Assembly: GCA_964583615.1 (NCBI GenBank) | Contig: CAZOWM010000002.1 | Coordinates: forward strand, 8,050 to 72,049 | Direction: 5' to 3' | Source of the DNA: an uncultured Spirochaetota bacterium | Lineage (GTDB): Bacteria; Spirochaetota; B62-G9; DRHN01 | DNA length: 64,000 nt | Part shown: positions 2,326 to 8,842 of the stretch, one piece after another | Numbering within the stretch: the stretch's first letter is position 1 | How the letters are laid out: the number at the start of each line of letters is the position of its first letter | Program-made: the position numbers and the translations under genes | The notes under the pieces: model-generated | What the model was told of the DNA's origin: nothing | Databases searched by the model: none | What the model saw: only the letters and a program-made list of their open reading frames with translations

Positions 2326-3387
2326 TCAAATAAAGATTTTCGTGACGTCATCGATTCCTGTGGGACGGGCAGCTGTTTTTTTCCCGTCTTCGATGAGCCA
2401 GAACCGGTCTCCGCGCGCGGTAAATTCTCCGATGCGGCTGATCGGGGGAACACTTTCATGCAGCCTTCCAAACGCCCGCTCCAGTCGGGTCGCCTCCTCC
2501 CGCGGCACAGATATGAGAAGAGCGCCAGAGGCGATCAAGTTGAAAGGCGACAGGTGGAAATGCCTGCAGAGATCAGCGGTCTCGGTATACACGGGAATTC
2601 GATCGAGAGAGATCTCAAGCCCCTTCCCTGATGCACGCGCCATCTCATAGGCGCCGGAAATGACCCCTCCTTCGGTGGGATCGTGCATTCCGGTCACGCG
2701 TGCGGCGTTTCGTGCACGAAAAGCATCCTTGACCACACTGATCCCCGGGACGGAGAGAAACTCGCGGCACCTCACGTAAAAATCCTTCCCGAATGTGTCT
2801 ATCACCTCCTCCTTTTTTTCCCGTGCAATGATGGATGTCGCCTCTATTGCGACCCCTTTTGTTATATACAGAAGATCCCCTTCGCAGATGTTGATATTGC
2901 TGACGAGCTCGCCCTTTGCCGCTTCACCCAGCATCGTTCCGGAGAGTATGGGGCTTCGAAGCCCGTGTGTGACTTCCGTGTGCCCTCCGATCAGCTCGAT
3001 GCCGAGCTCTCTGCACGCCTGCCGCAGATCCTTCATGATGTCTTCGAGCATGCGCACCGTGGCCCTGTGCTCCGGCAGCAGCATGGTAACGAGAAACCAC
3101 CGCGGAGTCCCTCCCATCGCGGCAATGTCGTTTGCATTGATGTTGACCACATACCAGCCGATTCGATCTGAGACGAAGGTGATCGGATCACTCTTCACGA
3201 TGAGATAACTCTCCCCAATATCGATCGCAGCTGCGTCCTCTCCTATCCCCGGTCCCACCACCACCTTTTTGTCCCGTATCTCGATTTTGCCGAGTATCTT
3301 TTCAAGAAACTCGCTTTTCAGCTTGCCGGTCTCGAGTGTGCTCATGTGCATATCCGTGTAAAAATCTGGAATTTCCGCAGCATCCAT
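2326..3387 (-). CDS. AIR synthase-related protein (PurM/ThiL/HypE superfamily)
   Basis: 353 aa. N-terminal GIGEDAAAIDIGESYLIVKSDP resembles the ThiL/HypE/PurM N-domain. Exact family not resolved. Confidence 0.6.
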   Translation of the reverse strand: MDAAEIPDFYTDMHMSTLETGKLKSEFLEKILGKIEIRDKKVVVGPGIGEDAAAIDIGESYLIVKSDPITFVSDRIGWYVVNINANDIAAMGGTPRWFLVTMLLPEHRATVRMLEDIMKDLRQACRELGIELIGGHTEVTHGLRSPILSGTMLGEAAKGELVSNINICEGDLLYITKGVAIEATSIIAREKKEEVIDTFGKDFYVRCREFLSVPGISVVKDAFRARNAARVTGMHDPTEGGVISGAYEMARASGKGLEISLDRIPVYTETADLCRHFHLSPFNLIASGALLISVPREEATRLERAFGRLHESVPPISRIGEFTARGDRFWLIEDGKKTAARPTGIDDVTKIFI

Positions 3388-3411
3388 AGTAATGTATTAT
3401 TCCATGTGACA

Positions 3412-3948
3412 ATGTACAAGAATTTTGGAGGATCCGTGAAGCCGATCATCTTCTGCGGATATCACAATACGGGAAAAACAACGTTGATGGCAAAGGCGGT
3501 CGCCGGCCTGCGCGGCCACGGGTGGGAGGTGAGCGCGGTAAAGCACATGGGTTTGGACAAGTACGTACTCGACGAAACCCATGACACAGGAATCCTTCTT
3601 CAGTCGGGCTGCAGTGAGGTCAGGGCGCTCACGGAATCCTTTACCGTGCATTACCGGCGCGAGCGGGAATTCGGGGCTGCTGAGAGGCTCCACGCGCTTC
3701 TCCGGTTGTTCGAAGCTGATTACGTGCTCATCGAGGGATTCAAATCCTATGTGGGAGTGATTCCAAAGATCGTGTTCGGGCGGACAAAAGAACAGATCGG
3801 TTCCCTCATCGACGCCGGCACGGTCGCCTACTCAGGGATCGGGATCGAAGATTTCGGGTTTCCCCGGATGAGGTTCATTTCCCCGGGCGCGGCACCCGAG
3901 ACGGTCGCAGAGTTCATCGAAACGCACACTGACCGGTTTTCTCCGTAA
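3412..3948 (+). CDS. mobB: molybdopterin-guanine dinucleotide biosynthesis adapter protein MobB-like
   Basis: P-loop IIFCGYHNTGKTTL followed by VKHMG..., typical of MobB. Start moved to an internal ATG (a GTG at about 3439 with GGAGGA is also possible) to avoid overlap with the upstream convergent gene. Confidence 0.65.
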   Translation: MYKNFGGSVKPIIFCGYHNTGKTTLMAKAVAGLRGHGWEVSAVKHMGLDKYVLDETHDTGILLQSGCSEVRALTESFTVHYRREREFGAAERLHALLRLFEADYVLIEGFKSYVGVIPKIVFGRTKEQIGSLIDAGTVAYSGIGIEDFGFPRMRFISPGAAPETVAEFIETHTDRFSP

Positions 3949-4052: not shown

Positions 4053-5045
4053 TCACTCCATGAAAAATTCTTTGTAGAGGAGAAAGTTGACAAAGGGGTT
4101 TCGCTGCAGGTTCGAAGAAGGGGTATTGAGGTTCCCGGCATAATCGACGAGGAGCCGGGCGAAGGACTCGCGTTCGGTTTTGAAAAAGTAGAGGGCGAGG
4201 TCCAGAATGGCCTCACTATACAAAGCCCGCTTTTCGGGGGTGAAGTAAAACGTAAATACTTTTTCGATCACGTCATTCACCCGTTCCTGCGGGCTTTTTC
4301 CCTGAAGAATGAGCGTGCTCCTTTTGGCACGTTCGATCTCCTCTTTGAACTCTCTCATGTCCTCCGGGGGAAGGGAAAGTGAGACGATTTCCTTCTGCTG
4401 GAAGAGGGCCTTTTCCTCATCCGGTTTTACGAGCCGTGTAAGCTGTGAAGGAATCAAATCGAGCATAGGATGTCTCGGCGGCTGCGGGTCTTCTTTGCGC
4501 AGGACGTCTGGCAGCGATGAAATTCCCGATAGTTCTTTGCCGTCAGTGTTTTTGAGCGCAGTGTTCAGTTTGTACAGGGCATATGGCTCTGGCGCATGAA
4601 AAAGCCCCGGCGTGTCCTGCGCGATTCTGCTGAACTGTTTCTTCGCGGATTGCTGAAGGGTGTATGCCACGAGACCGCGCACAGGGTTGACCGTAAAACG
4701 GGCTGCCTTCAGGGAAGAGGTCGATGTTTCGAGCAGGGAGAACACCACAAGGCTGTTCCACTGCGAGTCAGGGATCGAAACAACACATTCACCGATTTGA
4801 TACGTTGGTTTCACGGCCGCTGATTTTTCCTGCCTTTCGGGCCGCGCTTCGTCAACGTCTATTCCCCTTGAATGCAGCACGTAGAGAGCCTTTTTCGCTG
4901 CCTTGCGCAAAAGCTTAGGCTGGGAGGAATCGAGCGCACACTTCCAAAGCTGCCCGAGAACCATGCTTAGCTCTCCCCCTTCCGCCGCACTGAAAACAGC
5001 CTTCGGGTCCCGAAGGATGATCTCTTTCAGCTGATCTTCTGTCAT
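4053..5045 (-). CDS. hypothetical protein, no recognisable domain
   Basis: 330-aa ORF with coding-like composition. 24 nt downstream of the GIY-YIG gene on the same strand. Confidence 0.5.
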   Translation of the reverse strand: MTEDQLKEIILRDPKAVFSAAEGGELSMVLGQLWKCALDSSQPKLLRKAAKKALYVLHSRGIDVDEARPERQEKSAAVKPTYQIGECVVSIPDSQWNSLVVFSLLETSTSSLKAARFTVNPVRGLVAYTLQQSAKKQFSRIAQDTPGLFHAPEPYALYKLNTALKNTDGKELSGISSLPDVLRKEDPQPPRHPMLDLIPSQLTRLVKPDEEKALFQQKEIVSLSLPPEDMREFKEEIERAKRSTLILQGKSPQERVNDVIEKVFTFYFTPEKRALYSEAILDLALYFFKTERESFARLLVDYAGNLNTPSSNLQRNPFVNFLLYKEFFME

Positions 5046-5069
5046 GTCCTCCCTCTTTCAGATGCCGCA

Positions 5070-6446
5070 TCACACAACATAACGCCGTTTCTCCTGCATA
5101 AGGCCGGAAAGCTCGGTACAGTGAAGCCGCAACGCAGCAAGCACATCCTGCACGGACCGGTACTGGTCTATCTCCACGATGTTTATTCTCTCCTCATACC
5201 GCTTCATGTACGAAAGCGCGATGACCTGGAGCGGATCAAATCCGCGGTGCGCCCCTCCCCGCATCTCCTTGATGATCTCCACCACCCGCGCTTCATCGGG
5301 TTTCACGCAGTCGAAGTCGTTTTCCATCAGAAAGGAGTTTTCCGAAATAAAGTACAGTTTGAGCGTACTCTGTTCCTTTCCGGGGAGCAGCAGTATCCTG
5401 TCGGAAACCGATATCCTCCTTTCCGGTACTTTTACCCGCTTGTTGTACTGCGGCCTGTGCATCTCGATCAGCCTGAACTCCTCGATTATCGCCTCGAGAT
5501 CGGAGCCGAGCGTGCGGTACTGGATCGTGAAAAGCTCCTCGAGGATTCCTTCGATCTTTTCCACGCTTTCTCCCGTGTTCCAGAAATAGGAGTGAACACG
5601 GATGCGCAGGTTGTTCGTCTTCCCGACATAGATCAGCTCGTTCTTCCGATTGAAAAACTGGTAGACTCCGGGCATTTCCGGGATGTCCCTGAGAAAATCT
5701 CTGTCGAATCCGTAGCGGGAAAAATCGACATCCTTTCTGTTTCCCAGTGAGAACTGAAAAAGCTGCCCATAAGTGAAAATAGCTCTTTCCTTTACCACTT
5801 TCAGAATGTACTCGAGGATATACACGAGCGTCTCTGTTTTCGATGAGGGGCGGTCTGACTGGATGTTTCGAATTCCGAACTGCTCCACAATCTGCTCCCA
5901 TGTTTTCAGCGTTTTGTCAGGAAAAAGAAGGGAGACAAGCGCCCTGACAGAAAGCGTGCGCAGCTCGGGCTGCAGCGGTGAGTGTGACCTGTACACTTTT
6001 TTCAGTATTCCCAGGCTCCTCAAATCGTGGGGAACGAACACACTCCTCCGTACATCCCGGATGACCGTTTTGATATCGAGATTCTTCTCGACGATCCCCC
6101 CTCTGTATCTGACAAACGATGACAGGGGGGCGAGAAAAGAAAAAACGTCTTTGCCGGAAGCCGTAAACCTCTTTGAGGACTTTCTCGGGTCCTCAATGGT
6201 AAAAAGAACAAAGCTGATTTCATGAATCGGAAGGCTTTCGACGGAAACTGTTTTCAATGCCTTCCATGAGCGGTCCTCTGACTGTGAAAAACGCGCGTCT
6301 GTACCGAGGATAGGCTCCACGATCTTTTGGGCAATCTCATCATCCGGAGAATCGATCTTGAAGAACTCCTTCAGGATCTGTGCATTGGAGAGGCTCTTTT
6401 TTTCCTCACGCATTGCCGAGTAGATCCTGTCAGTAATGCTTTCCAT
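5070..6446 (-). CDS. GIY-YIG (UvrC/Cho-type) nuclease domain protein with ~250-aa N-terminal domain of unknown function
   Basis: 458 aa. Residues ~259-340 carry GVYQFFNRKNELIYVGKTNNLRIRVHSYF ... EEFRLIEMHRPQYNKRV, the classic GIY-YIG motifs (GxY, YxGK, R, E, N). These fall at about nt 5426-5672. Confidence 0.65.
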   Translation of the reverse strand: MESITDRIYSAMREEKKSLSNAQILKEFFKIDSPDDEIAQKIVEPILGTDARFSQSEDRSWKALKTVSVESLPIHEISFVLFTIEDPRKSSKRFTASGKDVFSFLAPLSSFVRYRGGIVEKNLDIKTVIRDVRRSVFVPHDLRSLGILKKVYRSHSPLQPELRTLSVRALVSLLFPDKTLKTWEQIVEQFGIRNIQSDRPSSKTETLVYILEYILKVVKERAIFTYGQLFQFSLGNRKDVDFSRYGFDRDFLRDIPEMPGVYQFFNRKNELIYVGKTNNLRIRVHSYFWNTGESVEKIEGILEELFTIQYRTLGSDLEAIIEEFRLIEMHRPQYNKRVKVPERRISVSDRILLLPGKEQSTLKLYFISENSFLMENDFDCVKPDEARVVEIIKEMRGGAHRGFDPLQVIALSYMKRYEERINIVEIDQYRSVQDVLAALRLHCTELSGLMQEKRRYVV

Positions 6447-6549
6447 GCACTTCTCTCAGAAAAATGTGAAATTCTTATGCAGCACTCCAACTAATATAAT
6501 ATAATATGAAAAGGGAGCAAAAAAGGAAAGCCAAGAGGGAAAACGGGGA

Positions 6550-7167
6550 ATGGAAAAGGGAACGGAACAGGAAAAAAAGCATTACAAGTACAGTTTCTTC
6601 AAGGCGGGAACGAAAATATTCAACCAGGGCGACAGGGGAACGGACATCTACATCCTGAAAAAAGGAGCGGTGACCGTAATTGTCGACGACCAGATCGTGG
6701 GGCTGATAAATACGCCGGAAACGATCATCGGAGAAATGGCCTACTTTCTTAATTTGAACAGAACCGCGTCCGTGGAGGCGGTGGAGGATTCCGAATTCAT
6801 CATCATATCCGGTGAATACCTCTATGAAACGGTGATGAAAAAACCGAAAATCGGAATCGACCTCATTAAGATACTCAGCGCGCGGCTCGCGAAAACCACA
6901 AAACACGTGACGCACCTCGAGCATGAAATCATCGACTACCGCAACGAGCTGAGGAATCTCAAGGGGATTGCAGAAGAGATGAAGCCGAGCGCTCTCGAAA
7001 AACTCGTTTCCTACGGATTCCTCTCCCATGAGCAGATGGAGGAGTGCACAAAAACACTGGAAAATGCAAAGGATGAAAAAAAGAGTGTCTCTCTATCAAA
7101 GATCCTCGTGGAAAAAAATTACCTCTCACCGGAACAGCTCGTCCAGTTTCTCGAAATCCGACAGTAA
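6550..7167 (+). CDS. cyclic nucleotide-binding domain protein with C-terminal coiled-coil tail
   Basis: 205 aa. FKAGTKIFNQGDRGTDIYILKKGAVTV ... IGEMAYF...RTASVEAVEDSEF is a Crp-type cNMP-binding beta-barrel. The tail KILVEKNYLSPEQLVQFLE resembles a single MshEN/T2SSE_N-like motif. Confidence 0.7.
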   Translation: MEKGTEQEKKHYKYSFFKAGTKIFNQGDRGTDIYILKKGAVTVIVDDQIVGLINTPETIIGEMAYFLNLNRTASVEAVEDSEFIIISGEYLYETVMKKPKIGIDLIKILSARLAKTTKHVTHLEHEIIDYRNELRNLKGIAEEMKPSALEKLVSYGFLSHEQMEECTKTLENAKDEKKSVSLSKILVEKNYLSPEQLVQFLEIRQ

Positions 7168-7408
7168 GCGTAATTCAGCAGAATAGATCCGTCTTTCCGC
7201 TCGGAGAAAAGCTTTTTCAAAACAGAAATCGCTCGCACCCGGGAGATTATTTCAGAGCCAGATCTGATGGGAATTCAGCATTTCTATTCCAAGACTGGGG
7301 CTTCTCCTGTTTCATTCTCCTCACCTTGACTGTCGGGCAGATGAGATGTATAGTGTATGAATCACTGATGTGCACCTGAGGCTGAAAAACGGTCCGGGGA
7401 GGGGCGCC

Positions 7409-8842
7409 ATGCACTTTCACTGGTCGATTTTTATCGACCTCGGTATCATCTCAGTTGCTCTCATGACCGCGACTGCGCTCAGGAAGCGCGTGCACTTCTT
7501 CCAAAAATACCTCATTCCCAATGCGCTGGCTGCGGGTTTTTTGCTTCTGCCCTTTTACAGCTACGCCGGGCCTTTCATCGGTCTTGACAGCGAGGGTCTG
7601 GGAAACCTCGTGTTCCATCTTCTCAATATCTCGTTCATCGCCATGACCCTCAGGACACGGCGGTACAAAGCCTCCGGAAAAAATATCTTTTCAATGGTGA
7701 TCACCGTGCTTTCACAGTACTCTCTGCAGAGCATGGTGGGGCTCGGCATTACCTTTCTGTTCATTGCAACAGTCATACCGAACCTCTTCCCCAGCTTCGG
7801 GCTTCTTATCACCCTGGGGTTCGCGCTCGGCCCAGGCCAGGCGTTCGCAATCGGTAGTGGGTGGGAGAGCCGCGGCTTCTTCGGCGGAGGGAGCGTGGGG
7901 CTCACGTTTGCGGCCATCGGGTTTATCTGGGCCTGTTTCGTAGGAATGTTTCTGATCAACAATGCGATAAAACGAGGCTGGATCGAGAAAAAAGAGGTTT
8001 CTGAGAATCCCGTATCGGTACGCGGCGGTGAAAAAACCGCCTCATCAATCGAGCCCGGATCCGGGTATGCGCCGAACACCGGCGCGATCGACCAGATGAC
8101 ATACAATTTCGCCATCGTGTGTGCGGTCTACCTTCTCACATACCTTCTTCTCAGGGGAATCACCGCTGCACTCTCATACACCGGCACCATCGGTATAGAC
8201 CTCGCGGAGCATCTCTGGGGAATCGCCTTTATATTCGCCTCGCTCGTGGCTGGGGTGGTGAAAAAGCTCTTTTTTGTGTTTGGTATCGAAGGGAGCATCT
8301 CCAACGAACGGCTGACGCGCATCGCGGGAACGTCAGTCGACTTCATGGTCGCTGCCTCGATCGCTGCGATCTCACTCGTTGTCGTCCGGCACTACTGGCT
8401 TCCCATCTCGGTGATGGCGCTTCTGGGCGGCATATGCACGGTGCTTTCACTGCTCTGGCTTTCGTCCCGCCTGTTCACGGACTATGTGTTTCAGCGCACC
8501 ATTCTGATCTTCGGGGCCATGACCGGCACGCTTCCCACAGGTCTCGCGCTTTTGCGCGTGATCGATCCCGAGTTCGAGACACCCGCTTCATCAGACTACA
8601 TGTATGCGGTGGGGATAATTTTCTTTTTCGCGATCCCCTTCATCTTTTCCATGAACTTTCCAGTCTACGGATACACCACCGGCAGGACCATATACTACTG
8701 GATGACTTTTTTCATCTACGCAGCGTACCTGATATTCGTTCTCGCTTCGTTCAGGGTCATGAAGGGAAGGGGCGCGTTCAAGGGTGCGGGAAAACTCTGG
8801 AAACCCGACGTGAAGCACGAATGTATGTCATTCAAGGAATAA
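7409..8842 (+). CDS. gltS: sodium/glutamate symporter GltS-like membrane protein
   Basis: Polytopic membrane protein. N-terminus ALRKRVHFFQKYLIPNALAAGFLLLPF resembles the E. coli GltS N-terminus (LGRKLVH..FLKKYTIPEPVAGGLL). The GGGAGGGG RBS sits before ATG 7409. Confidence 0.65.
   Translation: MHFHWSIFIDLGIISVALMTATALRKRVHFFQKYLIPNALAAGFLLLPFYSYAGPFIGLDSEGLGNLVFHLLNISFIAMTLRTRRYKASGKNIFSMVITVLSQYSLQSMVGLGITFLFIATVIPNLFPSFGLLITLGFALGPGQAFAIGSGWESRGFFGGGSVGLTFAAIGFIWACFVGMFLINNAIKRGWIEKKEVSENPVSVRGGEKTASSIEPGSGYAPNTGAIDQMTYNFAIVCAVYLLTYLLLRGITAALSYTGTIGIDLAEHLWGIAFIFASLVAGVVKKLFFVFGIEGSISNERLTRIAGTSVDFMVAASIAAISLVVVRHYWLPISVMALLGGICTVLSLLWLSSRLFTDYVFQRTILIFGAMTGTLPTGLALLRVIDPEFETPASSDYMYAVGIIFFFAIPFIFSMNFPVYGYTTGRTIYYWMTFFIYAAYLIFVLASFRVMKGRGAFKGAGKLWKPDVKHECMSFKE

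Follow-up and report, generated by a model that had tools for sequence, protein, structure and literature searches.

We examined a pair of neighbouring genes in a 64,000-nucleotide (nt) stretch of DNA, hereafter the window, from an uncultured Spirochaetota bacterium. The first gene (5070..6446, minus strand) starts with ATG and encodes a 458-residue protein of four domains, including a GIY-YIG catalytic domain of the type found in UvrC and Cho. We refer to this protein as the nuclease. The second gene (4053..5045, minus strand), also with an ATG start, encodes a 330-residue partner from a broad uncharacterised family. On balance, we favour an inherited variant of DNA repair, in which a repair or maintenance nickase that would not need UvrB acts with an accessory subunit. 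What is new is a derivative of the Cho-like+Exo nucleases that has gained a winged helix, carries a pseudo-exonuclease and lacks the UvrB-binding segment, together with a clade-specific partner.

Both open reading frames (ORFs), taken from a six-frame list, are genuine conserved genes. There are ~38 full-length homologues of the nuclease (446–468 residues), almost all from uncultured Spirochaetota, and 11 close plus many distant homologues of the partner. An earlier reading of this DNA, made from the sequence only, had placed the two genes at these positions with 24 nt between them; the ORF list agrees.

The GIY-YIG domain has a complete active site

The UvrC/Cho-type GIY-YIG domain occupies residues ~250–340 (5427..5699, minus strand) and its active site is intact. 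The Pfam model GIY-YIG PF01541 scores 27.3 bits, against a gathering score of 22.6, and matches 29 of 29 family members. Comparison with 1yd6, a structure of the UvrC N-terminal domain, gave E-values of 6e-13 for the single sequence and 5e-23 for the family profile. A Foldseek search with the AlphaFold2 model also identified 1yd6 and 1ycz (E 4.5e-7 to 1e-5, target-normalised TM-score (TMt) 0.82–0.86, root-mean-square deviation (rmsd) ~2 Å). Identity to UvrC N-terminal domains is 36–40% over ~88 residues.

Seven catalytic-site residues (Y262, Y273, K276, R283, Y287, E323 and N335) correspond to Y19, Y29, K32, R39, Y43, E76 and N88 of T. maritima UvrC. None of the seven varies among 29 aligned sequences, which include homologues down to 36% identity. 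The sequence-only reading had described a complete UvrC/Cho-type motif set in an unusual, non-N-terminal position. Each part of the set (GVYQF, YVGK, R283, E323 and PQYN) was found, and the domain is indeed internal. We conclude that the GIY-YIG domain is of the UvrC/Cho type with a complete active site.

Domains flanking the GIY-YIG domain

The AlphaFold2 model of the nuclease (predicted local distance difference test (pLDDT) 84.5, predicted TM-score (pTM) 0.76), searched against the PDB with Foldseek, contains four domains. Briefly, these are a winged helix, a DnaQ-like pseudo-exonuclease, the GIY-YIG domain and a C-terminal α/β domain. The region before the GIY-YIG domain had been described as one unplaced domain of 250 residues. 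Its position was right, but it comprises two domains, the winged helix and the pseudo-exonuclease.

The winged helix spans residues 1–65 (6252..6446, minus strand). It is nearest to HARE-HTH and the N-terminal domain of the RNA polymerase delta subunit. Foldseek matches were 8x6g_E, 9a6y_A, 2krc and 2m4k, with probabilities of 0.85–0.98, TMt of 0.44–0.53 and weak E-values of 0.24–0.67. Pfam scans of the region, including HARE-HTH PF05066, gave no match. A D50-x-R52-F53...W61 signature is kept in the family alignment.

Residues ~75–240 (5727..6224, minus strand) adopt a DnaQ-like (DEDDh) exonuclease fold. The top four NCBIfam matches of the protein are PRK07883 "DEDD exonuclease domain-containing protein" models. 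These align with residues 163–339, from the C-terminal half of the exonuclease into the GIY-YIG domain, at 95.1 bits against a cut-off of 495. In a profile comparison using hhalign, the family matched P0047, an active RNase_T plus GIY-YIG protein, with a probability of 97.7 over residues 134–337. Hence, the exonuclease assignment does not depend on the structure model. Foldseek matches to the model are themselves exonuclease folds: PolC, S. aureus DinG, a DnaQ domain, ExoX and TREX (9qrn, 8zef, 8h18, 4fzy).

Alignment with active homologues revealed that the catalytic residues of Exo I (DxE), Exo II (D) and Exo III (Hx4D) are all replaced. Where active proteins have DxETTG, HNxxFD and HRAxxD, the nuclease has T-I-E-D-P, P-H-D-L-R-S and D-R-P-S-S-K. 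No acidic or histidine column is conserved between residues 70 and 240 in the 29-sequence alignment. Pfam RNase_T PF00929 matched none of those 29 proteins, and the RNase_T domain was undetected by Pfam in every full-length family member tested. A degenerate DnaQ-like exonuclease had been offered as one possibility for this region. For these reasons the guess was right and, to judge from its residues, the domain is a catalytically dead pseudo-exonuclease.

In active relatives, a Cys-rich and UVR (UvrB-binding) segment of ~130 residues sits between the GIY-YIG domain and the C-terminus. It is present in the proteins of loci L047, L054, L058 and L052, and in P0047, and is absent from the nuclease. 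Here, the GIY-YIG domain is followed by an α/β domain at residues ~345–458 (5073..5414, minus strand), modelled as three strands, two helices, a strand and a helix. This domain has a conserved FDPLKVIAL-YLKRYEE motif, no Pfam match and no structural match in the PDB by Foldseek. An iterated profile of the C-terminal domain only found it in homologues from Planctomycetota, Latescibacterota and Cytophagia. The same profile does not reach the active exonuclease plus UVR proteins. Hence, a MAFFT alignment of the C-termini with those of the active proteins is unproven.

Spread and ancestry of the nuclease family

Family spread was assessed by scanning one genome per GTDB species, followed by profile scoring. 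Full-length members occur in ~13 Spirochaetota metagenome-assembled genomes (MAGs; 37–51% identity) and in ~25 Brocadiaceae and other Planctomycetota (25–29% identity). Others are found in KSB1, Acidobacteriota and Latescibacterota. Some of the Spirochaetota members carry the NCBI name "nucleotide excision repair endonuclease". Remoter matches in Chloroflexota, Vampirovibrionales and Sphingomonadaceae are canonical proteins with an active exonuclease and a GIY-YIG domain, some with UVR. One protein from a Chloroflexota MAG (L052, 6843-9110, 756 residues) shares the N-terminal helix domain of the family and also contains an RNase_T domain that Pfam detects and a GIY-YIG domain. It may represent an evolutionary intermediate, judged from its domain content. 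The Exo II region of this protein also looks partly altered (GHGLARGL).

In proteins of the Cho-like+Exo class, known from Actinobacteria and others, the Cys-rich region comes before a UvrB-binding domain (Dunin-Horkawicz et al. 2006, PMC1564403). The nuclease shares the order of this class (PRK07883), with a DnaQ fold before the GIY-YIG domain, and the profile alignment spans the linker too. However, the nuclease has its Exo I, II and III residues replaced, lacks the Cys-rich and UVR segment and has an extra N-terminal winged helix; homology of the C-termini is not demonstrable. We consider that the nuclease is probably a divergent offshoot of the DnaQ-exonuclease plus Cho-like GIY-YIG repair nucleases. 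The gene for P0047 adjoins genes for LexA-like and DinB proteins, in keeping with a parent family that acts in SOS or repair.

The likeness to UvrC is confined to the N-terminal domain (1yd6, 1ycz), with the same fold and all catalytic residues. Unlike UvrC, the nuclease lacks a UVR domain, a C-terminal RNase H-like endonuclease and (HhH)2 (PF02151, PF08459 and PF14520 are unmatched). It scores 69.3 bits against 285.45 for TIGR00194; its GIY-YIG domain is internal and the protein ends at residue 458. Like E. coli Cho (NF007833), it is a single GIY-YIG nuclease without the second endonuclease domain of UvrC, and one incision would be expected. However, NF007833 scores 43.1 bits against 367, with the GIY-YIG region alone aligning. 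The nuclease has extra N-terminal domains, and neither a Cys-rich region nor the Cho C-terminal domain was detected.

In L006 and ~17 other Planctomycetota loci (Brocadiaceae and others), a conserved gene for a TPR protein of ~430 residues precedes the nuclease homologue on the same strand (108-1379 in L006; 6422-7741 in L032). We considered this gene as a possible homologue of the partner and rejected it; the TPR protein is unrelated to the spirochaete partner. In L006, a gene for an OGG_N (8-oxoguanine glycosylase-like) protein comes after the nuclease gene.

The partner protein

The sequence-only reading had found no recognisable family for the partner. We instead find a large uncharacterised family, whose distant members have HEAT-repeat N-termini. 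An exhaustive profile search retrieved 565 representatives at E<=1e-3, counted at 50% clustering, of which 134 had E<=1e-10. A profile built from distant relatives only recovers the partner at E 5.7e-37. Most members are 380–595 residues long and share a core of ~290 residues with an N-terminal extension ahead of it. Distant homologues P0094, P0101 and P0150 match Pfam HEAT_2 in this extension, and the family profile matches HEAT-derived alphaRep chains (E 8.7e-13). The partner itself has no Pfam HEAT match and keeps one repeat-like helix pair only. All named members, from Thermodesulfobacteriota, Chloroflexota and others, are annotated as "hypothetical". Neither Pfam nor NCBIfam has a model for the family (proteins P0094-P0215; loci L069-L074), and we propose it as a candidate new domain family. 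Downstream of the partner-family gene in L069 and L072 come genes of the HisS/HisZ-like and radical-SAM kinds.

The structure model of the partner (pLDDT 85.8, pTM 0.70) has three parts. The helical N-terminus (residues 1–60; 4866..5045, minus strand) retains a remnant of a HEAT-like repeat, "LRKAAKKALYxLxSRG". Next come helices and an antiparallel β-sheet of four strands (residues ~80–166; 4548..4808, minus strand), a part that is weakly WGR-like. The third part is a conserved linker with LP and HP motifs and a C-terminal helical bundle (residues ~190–330; 4056..4478, minus strand). No Pfam, NCBIfam, PADLOC or PDB-sequence match to the partner was found. Matches to the WGR domains of PARP1/2 recur in Foldseek searches and are not significant (E 0.1–3, TMt 0.42–0.50). 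The same is true of a phage WGR protein in BFVD (TMt 0.50, rmsd 3.5 Å over 75 columns, E 1.1). Pfam WGR PF05406 matches 0 of 14 partner-family members. Hence, the model gives only a hint of WGR resemblance at residues ~80–166. Alignments of the partner family show no conserved constellation of catalytic appearance.

Linkage of the two genes

The spacer between the genes (5046..5069, minus strand) is 24 nt long and includes a purine-rich ribosome-binding stretch (5047-5058). This Shine-Dalgarno stretch, AAAGAGGGAGGA, lies right before the ATG of the partner. The arrangement looks like an operon, and co-transcription is predicted from the short spacer with its ribosome-binding site.

In 17 of 17 Spirochaetota loci that extend far enough, the partner profile matches the ORF directly downstream of the nuclease. 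Three more loci (L075-L077) were reached from divergent partner proteins; in each, the nuclease is immediately upstream. The partner is thus directly downstream, on the same strand, in all 20 assessable Spirochaetota loci. The two genes are therefore kept as neighbours throughout this clade, a point that the sequence-only reading had proposed to check. Gaps between the called genes are 8, 20, 24, 29, 42 or 48 nt.

The surroundings are broadly syntenic but variable. MobB can be present or absent, Lactamase_B is inserted in L077, and L075 has lost the IspE/D/F genes and has Dus at another position. The nuclease–partner junction is the sole junction constant across all 20 loci. The association is clade-specific, which fits a recruited accessory subunit, though inherited gene order may also account for it.

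Proposed function and rival explanations

By analogy with the UvrC N-terminal domain and Cho, the GIY-YIG enzyme would make single-strand incisions in DNA. Its winged helix and dead exonuclease domain may both serve to bind DNA and so lead it to its substrate without UvrB; the exonuclease domain could bind 3′-ends or single strands. The co-translated partner might bind the nuclease and act as its scaffold, or target or activate it. The role would be DNA repair or maintenance and not immunity. Slx1–Slx4 offers a possible analogy. In this eukaryotic pair a helical scaffold protein activates a GIY-YIG nuclease, and here too a GIY-YIG nuclease would be paired with a non-catalytic, largely helical protein. 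However, Slx1 carries a RING/PHD domain, not exonuclease or winged-helix domains, and the partner showed no homology to Slx4 in sequence or structure.

If this account is true, a nuclease of nucleotide excision repair has been rewired, with loss of the UvrB-docking segment and of exonuclease chemistry. A DNA-binding head of its own would have been added and, in one clade, an accessory subunit dedicated to it. The nuclease would then be a tractable case of a pseudo-nuclease domain reused for substrate binding. The pair would also provide the first functional handle on a family of 565 representatives that Pfam does not model and that lacks annotation. In practical terms the impact is modest, as every member is from an uncultured bacterium and some of the nucleases are already labelled as excision repair enzymes.

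Several points weigh against an UvrB-independent nickase with an accessory subunit. UvrB-independence we infer solely from the missing Cys-rich and UVR segment, and E. coli Cho has no UVR domain yet needs UvrB. Foldseek searches of the PDB and BFVD gave no significant structure for the partner. No partner-family gene occurs within 8 kb of the nuclease gene in ~25 Planctomycetota loci, or in the KSB1 and Acidobacteriota loci, and GIY-YIG genes are missing from the surroundings of six distant partner-family loci. Finally, the adjacency may be inherited gene order, because the whole block is syntenic in the clade. The nuclease loci with no partner-family gene nearby also favour a rival explanation, in which the two neighbouring genes have no functional relation. 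The nuclease would work alone or with UvrAB, and the partner would be an unrelated housekeeping protein in the same syntenic block. This would suit the partner family at large, which elsewhere sits beside HisS-like, radical-SAM, ECF-sigma or GltX genes, and never beside a nuclease. It would also suit the conserved order of the flanking AIRS, IspE, IspD and IspF genes. However, the junction between nuclease and partner alone survives in all assessable loci, while cNMP, MobB, Lactamase_B and IspEDF neighbours were gained, lost or moved. The same-strand genes, gaps of 8–48 nt and ribosome-binding site in the spacer also argue against unrelated neighbours. We regard this rival as unlikely. A more elaborate version of the incision system seems to us improbable. 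In this version, the WGR-like domain and the HEAT/helical scaffold of the partner would detect nicks or lesions and then recruit the nickase or activate it, with the dead exonuclease as a clamp for DNA ends or flaps. The pair would then be a two-component, UvrB-independent DNA incision system that has so far gone unrecognised, analogous in bacteria to Slx1–Slx4 or to a nuclease coupled to PARP-style sensing of breaks.

The sequence-only reading had raised roles in defence or as a toxin, which even combined have a small probability. Short, two-domain type IV enzymes (Ahi29725I, Apa233I) join a DpnI-like winged helix to a GIY-YIG domain and occur in variable contexts (PMC11037411). Such fusions are experimentally shown to be endonucleases dependent on N6-methyladenine (6mA), and HARE-HTH is a proposed modification reader (PMC11037411). 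Hence, the pair might be a modification-dependent type IV restriction or anti-phage module, with the winged helix reading modified DNA for the GIY-YIG domain to cut. A nuclease next to an unknown partner is a common layout in defence systems, and the cNMP domain encoded by the adjacent gene matches Pycsar effector models. However, the likeness to type IV enzymes is limited to a very general layout, a winged helix N-terminal to GIY-YIG, and none of the Foldseek matches to the nuclease model showed DpnI-like winged-helix similarity. The nuclease instead has a repair-type GIY-YIG domain, descended from an exonuclease-fused repair family, and a pseudo-exonuclease insert. PADLOC-DB 2.0 (E<=0.1) gave 0 families for either protein. 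Two scans of 2.9 million viral contigs found unrelated GIY-YIG domains only, with no relatives of nuclease or partner. The core-genome position of the locus is the same throughout a clade whose members have diverged to ~37% identity, no orthologous locus contains mobile-element genes, and the flat G+C content likewise speaks against defence. The cNMP protein has no effector domain. We consider this module very improbable, and the vertically inherited location likewise runs counter to the suggested defence or toxin role. A defence system was rejected as a candidate, given that no PADLOC model matched and that the matches of the neighbouring cNMP protein are limited to its cNMP-binding domain. 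Phage or mobile origin was rejected too, with no relatives on viral contigs and no significant match of the partner model in BFVD. Scarcely credible is a toxin–immunity or toxin–antitoxin pair, with the nuclease as toxin and the downstream protein as its inhibitor. The tight two-gene operon with the nuclease first has the right form. However, both proteins are large and the locus is single-copy, syntenic and vertically inherited. Moreover, the partner family mostly occurs without any nuclease and the nuclease family mostly without the partner, and domain scans found no secretion or polymorphic-toxin hallmarks. The sequence-only reading had counted a match of the N-domain to known repair proteins among refuting results, and by that standard the finding shifts toward a divergent Cho-like repair nuclease.

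A conserved element upstream of the nuclease gene

The divergent intergenic region (6447-6549) contains the element ATTATATTATA at 6495-6505 on the minus strand, ~50–60 nt before the start codon of the nuclease. It is a tandem ATTAT/ATATT repeat with a single match in the window. With <=1 mismatch allowed and the orientation kept, 9 of 17 orthologous Spirochaetota loci have ATTATATTATA in the 200 nt that precede the nuclease gene, mostly at -47 to -62. The background is 9 matches in ~242 kb elsewhere. Often a TTTTTCATG(N)AAA-like element comes after ATTATATTATA, which may act as an operator or as a promoter of unusual type. Inspection by eye recognised no LexA/SOS box upstream of the nuclease gene. 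Promoter and terminator scans yielded nothing beyond shuffle expectation.

Surroundings of the gene pair

The pair lies among housekeeping genes and next to a gene for a cNMP-binding protein, as the sequence-only reading had it. The whole window (1-64000) contains no tRNA gene and no Rfam family above its gathering score, and the G+C content of the region is flat (0.47–0.56). On the nuclease side are the divergent cNMP-binding gene, a membrane protein gene and GlnRS/GluRS. On the partner side are ispF, ispD, ispE, an AIRS-like (AIR-synthase-related) gene and a MobB-like gene.

The cNMP-binding protein (6550..7167, plus strand) has 205 residues, and its gene diverges from that of the nuclease. 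It adjoins the nuclease gene in most orthologous loci and is missing from L077 and L015. Scans of family libraries found no DNA-binding or effector domain in this protein. Its PADLOC matches, to Pycsar effectors (PycTIR, TIR effectors) and the cyclase model PycC, do not extend beyond the cNMP-binding domain. The C-terminus weakly resembles an MshE-type c-di-GMP-binding motif (NF053729, 23 bits, under the cut-off).

Further along, a gene at 7370-8842 (plus strand) encodes a predicted multi-pass membrane protein of 490 residues that matches no Pfam or NCBIfam family. The matching region of L001 encodes a 466-residue protein, also without any Pfam family.

The gene for the AIR-synthase-related protein (2326-3387, minus strand) scores under the cut-offs for ThiL, SelD and HypE. 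It adjoins the gene for a MobB-like P-loop protein (3346-3948, plus strand). In L005 and L075, the MobB-like protein is fused to an FeS domain. This AIRS-family enzyme, as yet unassigned, possibly has a GTPase partner in the MobB-like protein. The two genes stay beside the nuclease–partner pair even after the local rearrangement in L075.

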